Source of the DNA: a virus
Direction: 5' to 3' (one strand)
IMG/VR virus record: IMGVR_UViG_3300042013_000045
Location: 64,001 to 128,000 of that record
Length of the DNA: 64,000 bases
A program made the position numbers and the translations under genes. The notes under the pieces are model-generated. The model saw only the letters and a program-made list of their open reading frames with translations. It did no database searches and was not told where the DNA came from. Of this stretch, positions 28,775 through 49,134 are shown in pieces; position 1 is the first letter of the stretch; the number at the start of each line of letters is the position of its first letter.

Positions 28775-28813
28775 CATAAATGCGACGGGGTTTTCCTCGT
28801 CGCATTTATGCCG
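28775..28813 (+). terminator. hairpin + TATGCCG terminator-like element
   Basis: CATAAATGCGACGGGG-TTT-TCCTCGTCGCATTTATG, followed by CCG. Confidence 0.75.
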
Positions 28814-43877: not shown

Positions 43878-44270
43878 TTAACGGTTCAGTACGAACGGCT
43901 TCAGATCACCGAGTGGAATGTACTCAGGGAGCAAGCCGGGGAAACGAGCCTCGATCGACCCATCCTCGTAAACCATGAAGCTGTGGATGGTACGCACAGC
44001 GCCGTAAGGCGTACGCACCAGTTGACCGACCTGTGGAATCCACTGGCCGTTCAGTTCCACCGACACCACAGGCTTGTCCGACCCTTTACCTTTGTCAGCT
44101 TCAACTTCACCGACGAGGGTACGTTCCAGGCGAGCGATGATTTCGCTGTTCATGGAACGATGGTGGGTACGGGCCACTTCCGCGATACGTTCACGCATGC
44201 CATCCGGCAGACGTACTACGAACTTATCAGCGGTACGGGACGAGTAGATTGCTTGTTTCAATGGTTTCAT
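43878..44270 (-). CDS. amrZ: AmrZ/AlgZ-like Arc (ribbon-helix-helix) regulator with non-host C-terminal domain
   Basis: [49 protein letters not shown] matches the Pseudomonas AmrZ N-terminal domain. Confidence 0.85.
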
Positions 44271-44338: not shown

Positions 44339-45205
44339 TCAGTACCGTCCGTTAAGGAAGGCCTTGGCTTCGAGGACTCCTACCTCGGTGGCTTCATTGA
44401 AGCGTTTGGTTTGGGTTACGGTACGGAATGTACCAGCCTCACGATCAGTGAGGTACAGCGCGTTCATGCTATTTTTGGTAACATGTACGATGCCGTATAC
44501 TTCGGTGCCCATTTCGCGGATCGGATGGTAGCCTTTGCTGTACTTGTCCTTGAGAGACAACAGGTGAGCATCATCCAGTTGATCCAGGATGTGGGACTTC
44601 TGTGCAATACGTGCAAAGAAGTTATCCCAGAAGCGCAGGTCAGCTTTCTCGAACTCTTGGACCTCCAACTCTAACGGAGCTTCCAGTTGATCGGTGTAGG
44701 TGAGATCACCCAGACACTCACGAGCAGCCTCACTTAATAGAGCAGCGCGGGGACCGCTTACTACGATCTCAGCCGCTACCGGTGTTTCATCAACAGGATG
44801 GTCGTCAGGGATCACCTGGACATCCACACCTTTGACGATTTCCAGCTCAACGTCGTGGTGACGAGAGTGAAGGATAGCGTCGCTGATCGCTTGTGGATCA
44901 TCAGCAGGAACCTTCAACACCGCACGATGATGAACATCGATGGTGGTGACGCCCTTGAGCTGGCCGCGCTTCTGAGCCATCTCAGCGATGTTCAGGCTAG
45001 GCGGCAGTACCACTTCGATCGGTTCCATTGGAGGAACTTCTTCCAGATGCACAACACCGTAGCGTTCCATGATGTTGGTACGCAACTGACCCTTGAGCGT
45101 TTCGACTGGGTCGATCGGAGCCGGTTCAACACCAGCAACCACAGTCCCCTTCACGCCACAGAAGCGACGTTTGATAGCAACAGCACCAGCGAGTAATGCG
45201 AACAT
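44339..45205 (-). CDS. hypothetical early protein
   Basis: Likely start MFALLAG with AGGAG RBS, after the promoter at 45266. Confidence 0.6.
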
Positions 45206-45252
45206 AATGAATCTCCTGAAGATAAGGTTAAGAGCAGAAAGATTAGTCTCTC

Positions 45253-45295
45253 TATTCAACTGTACAATGTATGGCTGAAAATAATTGGAATCGAA
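45253..45295 (-). promoter_or_regulatory. phage promoter motif copy
   Basis: - strand TTCCAA-N13-TACATT-N6-TTGAATA; near-duplicate of 19442-19500. Confidence 0.7.
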
Positions 45296-45299
45296 CATA

Positions 45300-45336
45300 C
45301 GGCATAGAGGGAGAGCCATCAGGCTCTCCCTCTATG
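45300..45336 (-). terminator. hairpin + TATGCCG
   Basis: CATAGAGGGAGAGCC-ATCA-GGCTCTCCCTCTATG. Confidence 0.8.
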
Positions 45337-45337
45337 C

Positions 45338-45637
45338 TCACATGGTTGGACACCGTGACTTGGCTACAGCCAGAAACTCAGCGTGGATGTCAAACAGTTG
45401 ATCCATGGTGGTAGCGGTTTGTACAGCATCGATGAAGTGACCAGACGAAGCCATGATGTGCGATAGGAGCACACGTACGGCGTCAAACTCATCACCTACT
45501 AGCTTTTCCACGGGAGCGGTCTTCCACGTCTCCATGAGGACCCTGAGGGCGTTAGCGTTGCGATACACCTCTAACCACTTACCAGAGTTGCCACGGTCGA
45601 TGTTGATGCTACTGGTTACTTGAACGACTGGAGTCAT
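45338..45637 (-). CDS. hypothetical protein
   Basis: 99 aa, ATGA overlap with the upstream gene. Confidence 0.55.
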   Translation of the reverse strand: MTPVVQVTSSINIDRGNSGKWLEVYRNANALRVLMETWKTAPVEKLVGDEFDAVRVLLSHIMASSGHFIDAVQTATTMDQLFDIHAEFLAVAKSRCPTM

Positions 45638-46041
45638 GTGCGTTTGCCTTTCCAGCGTTTGCCCCCGAAGAGACGCACGCCGCCGTAGAAGATAGCGCTA
45701 CGCCAGAGGGCTACCCCCTCGTTACGCAATGCTCGGAAATAGATAGCGTCAGCGTCAGCCCGGTAAATGGTTGCACCGGAATCAGGAAGGCCGCCACCGT
45801 AGAGATAATCGTGGATGGTTGCTGCTTTATCCCCATACCCTGCCAACAGAGCGTAGATGATAAAGAAGCCAATGTCTCGCAAGGTTTTGATCGAGGCAAA
45901 GTCGGTGAAGCTGTTAGCAGGTGCGGTGATCACACCATAAACAGCATCGACACAGCTGAACGGTGCCAGCAGCATCTTCTTACGTTTGCCTACGTGACGG
46001 GTGTCTAAGTTGCCAAAGACAGATGTATCGGTGTCAGCCAT
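45634..46041 (-). CDS. DUF1353 family protein
   Basis: P...TDFASI, AA.IHDYLY, R.DAD.IY, GV and GVRLFG motifs. Confidence 0.75.
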   Translation of the reverse strand: MADTDTSVFGNLDTRHVGKRKKMLLAPFSCVDAVYGVITAPANSFTDFASIKTLRDIGFFIIYALLAGYGDKAATIHDYLYGGGLPDSGATIYRADADAIYFRALRNEGVALWRSAIFYGGVRLFGGKRWKGKRT

Positions 46042-46096
46042 GACAGGTTCCCTAAGAACACAAAAAATAAAGGTACTTCATATCATCACGGCATAA

Positions 46097-46857
46097 GAAA
46101 GGAATGGCCCCCACTCATCTAAGACTCTCGATGTATCCCCTAGCCCTTGGGCTGGTTCAATCATGGAGTCGGTAGTGAGAGGAGGCACATTGATACAGCT
46201 CGCATTGCCTAAGGAGGGATGCGATGAGGGACGTCTATCCCTTATAAGGCGGAACTTAATCCGTTTTGGCTGTTGTCGGTTCGGCCATGGGCTTACAGGG
46301 TCTGGAACCCTGGGCTTGGGGCCGTAGTACTCGTCATGCGGCGTGGTAATGTGAACAGTACAACCTGCTGAACGGCGGCCTGTTCGGGCGACTCGAAGGT
46401 TTTACCCGGACGATGTCGAACGAACTTGGCGGCAACCGGGACTGTGTAAAGCGACGCATCGCTATTCACTCCCGTGGGTGCAAGTTGAACATGGCAGGCT
46501 TCGGGTTGTTTATACCCGATAGCACCGGCATTACTGAAGCACATTACTAATCCGCAGACAATTGCGGCGAAGCTCAGTTCAAGGTCCTTAGAGGGATACG
46601 TTTTCCCTCGGAGTAGGAGTTCATATTTTGCAATCACGTATCAGGCGCCCCCAGACGACCACCTTATGGTCGCGGGGATGCCGTCGCACGGACAGCGTGG
46701 TAGGGTTTCGCGGTATCATCGGCACGGCGTGGATGCGTATCCAATCAGCGCGGAGCGACGCAAGAACTTGCGCCCTCCAAGTGCTGTAGGAAGCCCTAAG
46801 CGTCCTAAACACATCACGCAATGCCGAGAACAGAGACGGCATTCAGAACATCCTTTT
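46097..46857 (+). ncRNA. candidate giant structured non-coding RNA (~760 nt)
   Basis: About 20 helices found by eye, including long-range stems, with G-U wobbles consistently on the + strand; no credible ORF. Confidence 0.65.
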
Positions 46858-46908
46858 ACAAACTACCGGCAATCTTTTCATCATAGCACATTGATATCAT
46901 GGAATTAT

Positions 46909-47457
46909 TTACCGGCGTTCGAAGTCCAGTTGGTAAATGTGACTGAGGAAGTCGTGACCGTGTTCGAGGAGTACTTCGCTTACATTCTCGTTGGACGACA
47001 TCTTCTTCATCTTTACAATGCGCCCGTTCTGCACAGTAAGTCTGACATAATAGCCAAACTCTTGCAGGTTAGTGTTCAGGTCGATGGTGTGAGGGCCATG
47101 TACTTTCCAATTCGCGCCCTCGAACAAGTTGATACCCACACGAGAGACCGTCTCAACCTCAACCGTGGGCACAACTTCAGCCGATAGATGAGACGCTAGT
47201 ATCACCGCAGCGTACATCTTCGCGTGGATAGCTGCCTGACCACCAGTGAGGGACATCAGTTCCTCGAGTTCGGCGACTTCGCGCTCCATCTCCAGTTTAC
47301 GGAACTCTTCGAGAAGCTCCTCCAGTGGTCTCCAGTGCGTGGTTGTCCAGATACCGTACACTTCACCCTCATCGTCGGTGATGAGCTTTACAGGACGTAG
47401 GTTATTGATCACTGGTGGGCTCCCCTTTAGGTCGGACAGGTGTAGTTGTGCAATCAC
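46909..47457 (-). CDS. hypothetical protein (paralogue of next ORF)
   Basis: PVKL..D..GEV.GIW N-terminal motif. Confidence 0.55.
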   Translation of the reverse strand: MIAQLHLSDLKGSPPVINNLRPVKLITDDEGEVYGIWTTTHWRPLEELLEEFRKLEMEREVAELEELMSLTGGQAAIHAKMYAAVILASHLSAEVVPTVEVETVSRVGINLFEGANWKVHGPHTIDLNTNLQEFGYYVRLTVQNGRIVKMKKMSSNENVSEVLLEHGHDFLSHIYQLDFERR

Positions 47458-47962
47458 GTCCTTCGAACAGTTGGTGCATGTCGGTACCGTAAGGAATGAT
47501 GACCTCTTCGGTCTGTACCCACGCCTGACCGTTCCACTTGGACAACCCTACTACCAGTTCACCGTCAAGATGGACTGAGTATCGAGTATCGAGTTCAGGA
47601 TCTCTGTCATTAAGGATCTCGAACTCGACCGACATTGTACCGGTCACGCCCCAGTTAGGGTTAGACAGCGGTTCGAAGACTGTCTTACCGATGATCTCAA
47701 CCACGTGAAGACCGTTCATGGCTTTCGTGTTGACAACCAAATGGCGAAGACGACGACTGACTTCCATCATCTTCGCGAAATCTGTATCAGTGCCCATGTA
47801 CGCACGGATCTTCGCCAGTTCTTCTGCATGACCAAAGGTTTCCAGTTCCTCAAACATCTGTTCGATGCCTTTCAGTTGGTTCTGATACCAGATGCCGGTC
47901 ACCCCGTTCTCGGGATCGTACTTCAATGTGACAGGGTATTCGCTGTGATAATCATACTGCAT
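47402..47962 (-). CDS. hypothetical protein (paralogue of previous ORF)
   Basis: PVTL..D..NGV.GIW N-terminal motif. Confidence 0.55.
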   Translation of the reverse strand: MQYDYHSEYPVTLKYDPENGVTGIWYQNQLKGIEQMFEELETFGHAEELAKIRAYMGTDTDFAKMMEVSRRLRHLVVNTKAMNGLHVVEIIGKTVFEPLSNPNWGVTGTMSVEFEILNDRDPELDTRYSVHLDGELVVGLSKWNGQAWVQTEEVIIPYGTDMHQLFEGRDCTTTPVRPKGEPTSDQ

Positions 47963-48019: not shown

Positions 48020-48607
48020 TTAAACACAGCCATGGGTGCGGGCACCGGAATCTTCTTTAGGTTTTGCTATAGAAGCCGTAGGGATGTCCACTGGATACTT
48101 CTTGGCGTGAATCTCCTTGACAGTCTTGATGAGTTCCTCGACGTTGTACCATTTGTATTGTTCAGCCTGGCGGATGTCAGAACGTACCATGAGGTCTTGG
48201 ATCTCTTCACGGGTCTCGCCGATCAGCATTGCGGCTTGGCCCTTCTCAGACTGTGACTCACTGCCAGAGTACGCCCAAGAGACACCTTCACCCATTGGCA
48301 TGGCACGGCAGTACTTCTCGTCATCGTCGCCATTGAGACCATTGGTCAAAGTGAACTCCATGTGGAACAGTTCCCCTTCCAATGTCAACAACAACACCTT
48401 AGGGAAGGATTGGGTCCCGTCGACACCGGCTTTCTTACCGTCCATCCACGGTTTGAGGTTAGTGGCAGCTTGGTTGAGCCAGATCATCAATCCCTTGGAG
48501 CAGACCCACCATTCCAGCGGCATAAAGACTTGGGTCATGCCAAAGGTGATGATATTGGTGTTGAAGAATAAGTGACCGTCTTTGTAGATAATAGTCTGGG
48601 CACTCAT
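48020..48607 (-). CDS. degenerate Ntn-hydrolase / HslV-like paralogue
   Basis: TIIYKDG.L start resembles the upstream gene but lacks the Thr at position 2. Confidence 0.45.
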   Translation of the reverse strand: MSAQTIIYKDGHLFFNTNIITFGMTQVFMPLEWWVCSKGLMIWLNQAATNLKPWMDGKKAGVDGTQSFPKVLLLTLEGELFHMEFTLTNGLNGDDDEKYCRAMPMGEGVSWAYSGSESQSEKGQAAMLIGETREEIQDLMVRSDIRQAEQYKWYNVEELIKTVKEIHAKKYPVDIPTASIAKPKEDSGARTHGCV

Positions 48608-49134
48608 GCTTTAATCTCCTTTGGGAACGCCTTCAGTTGCGTGTGCTTGATGGAAAGGACTTTGCTTGGGTAAGTGTAGTAGTCGAGCTTAATACCCCAC
48701 TCAACGGCTTCTATGGCCGTCTTACCGGCCAAGCAGGCAACCATCGCCGGATCACGGCCCGTACCGATAGTGCTGAACTCATCGCCGATGAGACGAGAGA
48801 AGTGCTGAGTATTGTCTCGACGAACGCCACGACTGTAAGCACAGTCTTTGGTGATGATGATCCAGTCACGACCATCTAAGACATCCGTGATCTCTTTAGG
48901 GATCACGGTCGTAGGAGCGAATCCGTCGCGATGGGCCATGAAAAAAGCAAGCAGCTTGATTTCAAAGTCCTTGATCCAATCGGGGTCAATGATCGCTCCA
49001 GAGATACCGTACGCAAAATGTTTACACGCACTGATACGAATCTTGGGGTAGGTACTGATGTAAGCCACCGACGTACCGGTCACAGCGGATGAATCAGAGG
49101 CGAGAACGCCGTCTTTATAAACGATCGTAGTCAT
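48604..49134 (-). CDS. HslV / proteasome-beta-like Ntn peptidase
   Basis: MTTIVYKDGVLASDS, KI, G.SG, TIGTG, A.EAV and D motifs. Confidence 0.7.
   Translation of the reverse strand: MTTIVYKDGVLASDSSAVTGTSVAYISTYPKIRISACKHFAYGISGAIIDPDWIKDFEIKLLAFFMAHRDGFAPTTVIPKEITDVLDGRDWIIITKDCAYSRGVRRDNTQHFSRLIGDEFSTIGTGRDPAMVACLAGKTAIEAVEWGIKLDYYTYPSKVLSIKHTQLKAFPKEIKA

Follow-up and report, generated by a model that had tools for sequence, protein, structure and literature searches.

The large ornate RNAs GOLLD, ROOL and OLE belong to a class of 600-800 nt that is associated with phages, folds into several domains with many covarying helices, and carries conserved hairpin loops with a potential for tertiary or kissing contacts. 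The element described here, found in a 64,000-nt stretch of viral DNA (the window), resembles them in all of these respects. Unlike them, it has no match to their covariance models in Rfam, does not lie in a tRNA neighbourhood, and contains two frame-preserved open reading frames (ORF1 and ORF2) with ribosome-binding sites; its central domain can moreover be swapped for another ORF, as is seen in a set of distant relatives (group B, below). Held against the class of large ornate non-coding RNAs, it has the covariation-supported structure but not the absence of coding capacity.

The hok/sok type I toxin-antitoxin mRNA offers a second comparison. It shares with our element heavy folding, long-range pairing, a location in mobile genomes, and a leader ORF that precedes a small ORF whose N-terminus is hydrophobic. 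The likeness may extend to a fold-back of the 5' end on the 3' end, in which AAAAGGAUG (46857-46849) would pair with CAUUCCUUU (46106-46098) and so reach onto a ribosome-binding site; the underlying AAGGA:UCCUU complementarity of leader and 3' end is present in all members and, being invariant, shows no covariation. Our element is, however, about twice as long, its ORF2 encodes ~94 aa instead of at most 60 aa, and the Shine-Dalgarno (SD) sequence of ORF2 is exposed, not buried. A scan of the plus strand for an antisense promoter returned only weak sigma-70-like matches, a promoter type that is probably not the one used by this phage.

The dual-function (coding plus regulatory) RNAs RNAIII/hld and SgrS/SgrT likewise combine a conserved RNA structure and a small ORF in one transcript, translation being predicted in our case, but here the ORFs take up the greater part of the RNA and share sequence with its helices. 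Phage "moron" cassettes, small accessory genes that bring a promoter and terminator of their own, share with the element a promoter-like motif, small ORFs, a terminator-like hairpin, an occurrence in only part of a clade and a variable gene, here in the ORF2 position; unlike the element, they are not known for selection on the structure of the whole transcript that suppresses synonymous change. Whole-transcript selection on RNA structure is well known in RNA viruses. To our knowledge, few mRNAs of double-stranded DNA phages have been described in which selection on structure slows synonymous change 2.5-fold and dozens of compensatory pairs lie inside coding sequence.

We read the locus as a two-gene cassette, transcribed into a minus-strand mRNA of ~790 nt (~46882 to ~46097) whose fold is itself under selection. 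For this reading as a whole, including a role of the fold in cis, we estimate a probability of roughly 0.55; our confidence in the structure, in its strand and in the maintenance of coding is higher than that.

The window corresponds to bases 64001-128000 of a 172,837-bp IMG/VR viral contig with an estimated completeness of 65%. The 753-aa major head protein of this record matches the phiKZ-type family PHROG 3231 and is 61% identical to its counterpart in Pseudomonas phage pPa_SNUABM_DT01 (DT01), compared with at most 35% for other phiKZ-like jumbo phages, and we therefore assign the record to an uncultured jumbo phage in the neighbourhood of PaBG and DT01. No polymerase was found when RNA-polymerase Pfam models were run against this partial record. 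The cassette is inserted between tail-related genes.

Homologues were retrieved with the DUF1353 gene, which lies just downstream, as an anchor, by fetching the contigs that encode its relatives. An insert of ~870 nt is common to seven distinct homologues, all on metagenomic jumbo-phage contigs: L002 and L013 (each 90% identical to the window), L034 (85%; L035 and L036 are identical to it), L033 (74%, partial), L018 (72%), L016 (66%; L017 is identical) and the distant L014 (51%). Group B (L019 and L022-L024) and L021 are more distant and have only some modules in common. On the DT01, L004 and L005 contigs a gene stands directly upstream of DUF1353 and the insert is absent.

Wider searches did not extend this distribution. 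Nothing similar to the element was returned by blastn against 50,697 phage records, and the 182-aa gene upstream of it, used as a probe for the locus, retrieved no relatives. Exact 18-19-mers from the invariant blocks occurred in IMG/VR only on the L002 contig, and the gapped pattern CTCTAAGG...CGGATTRAGTTCCG retrieved known members only from the same database; two JGI metagenome matches to this pattern (L028 and L029) were rejected as chance matches in an unrelated context. A covariance model of the 3' part of the element (R1) found no copy in PaBG, DT01 and three other jumbo-phage records, and no second copy within the window's own genome. By nhmmer and R1 the element is also absent from the PaBG region upstream of DUF1353 (L025, NC_022096.1 120800-123128), a region occupied by four tRNA genes and ~1.5 kb without an annotated feature. 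Among the records searched, the element is confined to a narrow uncultured clade related to the Pseudomonas phages PaBG and DT01. In the literature we found no RNA of this kind described for jumbo phages, PaBG-like or otherwise.

The following features were mapped, listed in the 5' to 3' direction of the minus strand.

46887-46881, minus strand: promoter-like GCTATGA, with TATG at 46885-46882 and a candidate start site at G 46882
46880-46843, minus strand: 5' leader, with the SD of ORF1, AAGGA, at 46855-46851
46842-46621, minus strand: ORF1, 73 aa, basic, with a predicted long N-terminal helix
46671-46657, minus strand: hairpin GACCA-UAAGG-UGGUC within the end of ORF1, loop UAAGG conserved
46610-46592, minus strand: covarying hairpin (helix 11) upstream of the ORF2 SD
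46593-46585, minus strand: SD of ORF2, the conserved single-stranded CUCUAAGGA, in all members including group B
46577-46293, minus strand: ORF2, 94 aa from CUG 46577, with an internal AUG at 46544
46568-46533, minus strand: 5' strand of a long-range stem that closes a multi-branched domain with most of ORF2
46359-46321, minus strand: 3' strand of the long-range stem, partner of 46568-46533
46315-46290, minus strand: nearly invariant hairpin GCCCAGGGUUCCAGACCCUGUAAGCC with a T-loop-like UUCCAGA loop, containing the ORF2 stop codon
46272-46189, minus strand: non-coding 3' module of three hairpins, namely CGGAUUAAGUUCCG, a covarying 5-bp hairpin, and a hairpin with the loop CCCUCCUUAGG
46186-46097, minus strand: long variable hairpin ending in GGGGGCC plus a U-rich tail, the terminator-like end of the unit
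46096-46089, minus strand: TTATGCCG, candidate promoter of the DUF1353 gene and 3' limit of the unit
45634-46041, minus strand: DUF1353 gene, downstream neighbour of the element

Late promoters of phiKZ have a TATG core, the last G of which is the transcription start site (PMC4666361). As in a late unit of the phiKZ type, TATG stands at the candidate start site in all homologues, and the longer TGCTATG is invariant in all 6 aligned ones, the distant L014 included; if TATG acts here as it does in phiKZ late promoters, transcription would start at G 46882. At the opposite end, the terminal hairpin keeps its stem and has its tip rewritten in each homologue. A terminator-like scan match in this hairpin (46116-46102, minus strand) is weak, one such match being expected by chance. 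The motif that follows, TTATGCCG, is conserved in L014 and L021 and occurs five times in the window (at 28806, 40487, 41310, 46089 and 48518) against one expected occurrence, with 0 of 100 shuffles reaching as many; at least three of the copies precede the start of a gene on their own strand by 30-70 nt. Containing the phiKZ-type TATG, it is a candidate promoter element of the phage. The conserved TATG at 46885 and at 46095, together with the hairpin and U-rich tail at ~46100, bound a unit of ~790 nt.

Each ORF is preceded by a conserved AAGGA ribosome-binding motif. For ORF1, AAGGA with an AUG 6-9 nt further on is kept in five distinct aligned lineages, in L014 and in L021, and this SD pairs with codons 2-3 in a small conserved hairpin (helix 3; 5 pairs, 2 of them double-changed, 96.7% paired). 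For ORF2, the start codon lies 5-7 nt past CUCUAAGGA and is CUG in the window, L013 and L018, AUG in L016 and L019, and UUG in L014 and L022/L023.

Under the two-gene reading, the minus strand would be transcribed from the TATG motif at ~46882 and transcription would terminate at the last hairpin (~46097), yielding an mRNA with ORF1, ORF2 and then a 3' untranslated region of ~200 nt. The whole mRNA, coding parts included, would adopt a multi-domain conserved structure under selection of its own. Our best guess is that this fold works in cis, governing the use of each ribosome-binding site and its timing. The controlling elements would be the ORF1 SD held in a hairpin, the ORF2 SD left single-stranded between stable helices and, in addition, the loop CCCUCCUUAGG of the 3' untranslated region, which we take to match the anti-Shine-Dalgarno tail of 16S rRNA. 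The fold may also shield the transcript from nucleases. If it does control the translation or stability of a small membrane-directed protein, the cassette would be a compact model of control by mRNA structure in jumbo phages.

Single-sequence folding gave a first indication of structure. Against dinucleotide shuffles, z-scores were -5.98 on the plus and -3.80 on the minus strand for 46042-46908 (n=20), and -5.2 and -5.5, respectively, for 46093-46885 (n=25), where the strands are equal. Flanking coding stretches of the same length ranged from z +0.4 to -4.1 in such folding, and because coding sequence reaches -4.1 the energy of a single sequence is by itself weak, suggestive evidence. The coding stretches beside the element (45249-46041 on the minus strand, and 44339-45131) scored z -4.1, -2.9 and -3.8 and yet showed no excess of covariation; such high scores for single sequences are apparently widespread in this genome.

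Further evidence comes from the homologues. The consensus fold, based on alignment A4 (six sequences, minus strand), has 206 pairs and is 89.8% paired. Double changes occur in 64 of the 206 pairs compared with 26.7 +/- 3.6 in shuffles (0 of 500 as high), both the structure and these counts coming from one alignment and from ~7 independent sequences in all; the number fell to 14-20 when the 3' partners were slid. As a control for circularity, pairs were taken from the minimum free energy structure of the window alone and scored across the six homologues: where both sides had changed, 93 of 139 were still paired. The consensus-fold z-score against column-shuffled alignments was -9.2 for leader plus ORF1, -9.3 for the inter-ORF region plus ORF2, and -4.0 for the 3' domain, and the SCI was 0.73 vs 0.53.

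This conservation can be followed helix by helix. The ORF1 domain contains an 11-19-bp helix with 10 covarying pairs, for which L014 substitutes UCUCUCC/GGAGAGG outright. The UAAGG hairpin (helix 9) keeps its loop on a covarying stem (GAUCA/CGAUC in L016, GAUGUA/UACAUC in L019), and in the long-range stem (helices 12-15) 9 of 26 pairs have changed on both sides. The hairpin GCCCAGGGUUCCAGACCCUGUAAGCC is identical in five lineages and in L014, and L021 retains it in a different frame of an open stretch, which argues for conservation at the nucleotide level there. Between the window and L002 the differences are concentrated in hairpin tips, which are rewritten with pairing kept, and blocks of 45-86 nt are invariant though the flanking genes are only ~85% identical.

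Together these data support a large conserved RNA structure, backed by covariation and without an Rfam match. A cmscan of the whole window against Rfam 15 at gathering thresholds gave 0 hits on both strands, GOLLD, ROOL and OLE being among the families covered; at E-values up to 10 over 45900-47050, only a chance snoRNA match outside the element appeared. To this extent the first-pass annotation of the stretch is borne out. The helices that it listed are present in the sequence, which folds better than its shuffles (with the caveat that flanking coding sequence also folds well), and covariation among homologues was found. The long-range stem that it placed at ~46344-46360/46532-46549 is kept with compensatory changes, for example T-A to C-G at 46347/46546.

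Comparison of the homologues also shows that the stretch carries two small predicted protein-coding genes that are kept in frame. ORF1 is open in all homologues that cover it, with a variable C-terminal end. ORF2, which gene callers annotate as an 83-aa protein, is open and terminates at one common position in the window, L002, L013, L034, L033, L018 and L014 (seven lineages). From its AUG to the hairpin at 46658, ORF1 has indels of 3, 3, 3, 15 and 3 nt only; those of ORF2 are 3, 3, 3, 3, a pair of 8 and 5 (net 3), and 3 nt. Outside the ORFs (in the leader, the inter-ORF spacer, the 3' domain and the 5' untranslated region of the next gene), indels measure 1, 1, 1, 2, 2, 4, 5, 11, 13 and 34 nt, among others, and the only multiples of three are a 3 and a 6. 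This pattern, in which all ORF indels keep the frame, is the decisive comparative evidence that both ORFs are likely to be coding.

The substitution pattern points the same way. The pN/pS ratio is 0.56 for ORF1 (p=0.02 against column shuffles) and 0.55 for ORF2 (p 0.005), or 0.52 when ORF2 is counted from its CUG (p <0.0025); the median of column shuffles is 0.83-0.87 and other frames give ~1. AF2 predicts a helix over residues 4-38 of ORF1 (pLDDT 84-93) and models ORF2 at low confidence (pLDDT 49.5). In ORF2, which is 94-105 aa long, the hydrophobic N-terminus comprises the first ~20 residues only. Neither ORF has a family in Pfam or PHROG, and protein searches with them recovered relatives from the same clade only.

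The constraint on the proteins is nevertheless weak, with omega of 0.3-0.8 in the ORFs vs 0.05-0.14 in the neighbouring gene, and codon-usage scores are atypical (-0.17 for ORF1 and 0.06 for ORF2, where the genes of this phage score 0.33 +/- 0.13). When the window is compared with L013, synonymous divergence amounts to 0.13-0.16 in the ORFs and 0.36 in DUF1353, the ORFs thus changing about 2.5-fold more slowly; the RNA fold therefore constrains even silent sites. Such figures would also suit a different emphasis, in which the fold is the main product: a functional minus-strand RNA of ~790 nt, possibly active in trans, that would serve as scaffold, decoy or riboregulator like GOLLD, ROOL or OLE, with ORFs that are either under weak selection only or a secondary function, as in the dual-function RNAs RNAIII and SgrS. 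We regard this as the strongest competitor of the two-gene reading, although an unlikely one. It would account for an RNA-level constraint at least as strong as that on the proteins (pN is 3-4 times that of the neighbouring gene, against the lowered pS), for structure z-scores of about -9 across the coding parts, for the atypical codon usage and the CUG start of ORF2 in most members, and for the ORF2 stop hairpin being kept in another frame in L021. The loops UAAGG, CCCUCCUUAGG and UUCCAGA, conserved while their stems are rewritten, would fit it as well. With similarly limited confidence, the element may represent an undescribed family of dual-function ornate jumbo-phage RNAs, in which UAAGG, the anti-SD-like CCUCCUUA and the T-loop-like hairpin could make tertiary, multimeric or ribosome contacts. 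Should the fold function on its own, it would constitute a new large dual-function RNA. The frame-preserving indels and the conserved pairs of SD and start codon argue, against the fold as main product, that translation matters, and so does the arrangement in group B.

Group B retains the UAAGG hairpin, the SD module and the 3' module, at a spacing of 344-345 nt that is like the 330 nt of the closer homologues. The 85-nt 3' module was aligned across 11 sequences with the covariance model R1 (alignment A7) and is 89% paired vs 78% in shuffles, with double changes in 8 of 17 pairs (0 of 500 shuffles as high). In group B the stem under the CCCUCCUUAGG loop, UCGCAU/AUGCGA, has been swapped outright for GAACGU/ACGUUC and the loop kept. 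The place of ORF2 is taken by a different ORF of 95-105 aa (L019:1955-2269; L022/L023:1947-2231), which has no detectable homology to ORF2 of the closer homologues, group A (hhalign probability 0.2), and whose region folds weakly (z -1.0 and -2.8). The domain of ORF2 is thus exchanged for an unrelated ORF of the same size with a weak fold, and its position resembles a gene slot with conserved RNA modules on either side, not the core of an RNA. The small protein encoded in the group B slot is hydrophobic at its N-terminus and carries an invariant IYSAHGCGLC at the C-terminus.

Could the cassette consist of two ordinary small accessory genes, with the structure a by-product of recombination, low divergence or GC-rich composition? 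In several contigs gene callers do report small genes at this place, other relatives lack the insert, and flanking coding sequence also folds well, one stretch at z -4.1. We nevertheless consider this improbable. In the same consensus-fold test and the same genomes, the neighbouring DUF1353 and 99-aa genes gave z-scores of -1.3 and +0.1 and no covariation excess, and these well-aligned controls showed 0-2 compensatory pairs in the closer homologues. Neither recombination nor low divergence can produce compensatory double changes and rewritten stems, and the pairing of the 3' module is kept in group B despite low sequence identity.

The two-gene reading also requires that the RNA be the minus strand, and here it departs from the first-pass annotation, which had proposed a giant ornate non-coding RNA on the plus strand, antisense to its gene block. 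The 20-shuffle comparison favours the plus strand, and Watson-Crick covariation, being symmetric between strands, does not by itself exclude it; the advantage disappears with 25 shuffles, for which the strands are equal. Non-Watson-Crick pairs discriminate between the two. In helices predicted on both strands, G-U and A-C stand at 19:40 in the homologues when the plus strand is read; reading the minus strand, helices that covary by Watson-Crick changes give 31:14. One-sided changes that keep pairing amount to 121 of 335 (36%) on the minus vs 75 of 345 (22%) on the plus strand, and in the closest homologue changed pairs are kept in 61% vs 32% of cases. Consensus energies likewise favour the minus strand (-166 vs -130, and -229 vs -206). 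It follows that the RNA has the same sense as the gene block and is not antisense to it: these comparisons show the minus strand, that of the flanking genes, to be the one that would carry the structured RNA. The ORFs kept in frame and both the promoter-like and terminator-like motifs are on that strand too, and a plus-strand RNA is in our judgement very improbable.

The G-U wobbles that had been taken as a sign of selection on the plus strand thus point to the minus strand once homologues are compared, and a stretch said to have no convincing ORF, and hence called non-coding, holds two conserved in-frame ORFs, each preceded by an SD. What stands of the proposed undescribed large structural RNA is the structure and its lack of an Rfam match; the plus-strand antisense placement and the non-coding nature do not hold. 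An afterthought of the same annotation, a minus-strand transcript running from the TATG at ~46882-46885 to the TATGCCG at ~46089, fits the data better. A hairpin-tiled stretch without an obvious ORF can conceal small genes with unusual coding, and comparative G-U evidence is a better guide than a single sequence to the strand on which a structured RNA lies.

An element acting as DNA (an origin, a packaging site or structured single-stranded DNA) would explain the dense inverted repeats and a strand preference that is statistical and not absolute, but it is the least probable alternative of all, as iterons, tandem repeats and an AT-rich unwinding region are all absent (GC 0.49-0.56) and the G-U asymmetry and coding signatures indicate RNA. 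Four further candidates were rejected: a remnant of a tRNA cluster (no tRNA or tmRNA in the window or the homologous loci), a self-splicing intron (intact flanking genes, no Rfam hit), a CRISPR or repeat array (no repeats), and a retron or DGR element (no reverse transcriptase nearby).

The surroundings of the cassette vary as well. Between the cassette and a 186-aa gene, this phage alone has a 182-aa ORF (46909-47457, minus strand) with a normal codon-usage score of 0.30, and in L002, L013 and L018 the homologue of 47402-47962 is the immediate upstream neighbour of the cassette; the ORF was thus either inserted here or deleted in L002, L013 and L018. Further upstream, a 176-aa protein (48604-49134, minus strand) matches the PHROG "peptidase HslV family" with an E-value of 6e-16. 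When the 5 kb around the element were compared by blastn with cultured phages, the sole similarity at the DNA level was an Arc/AmrZ-like DNA-binding gene (44115-44265), which is 75-82% identical to PaBG, Noxifer and small Pseudomonas phages, and this distribution suggests a module that may be exchanged among phages.
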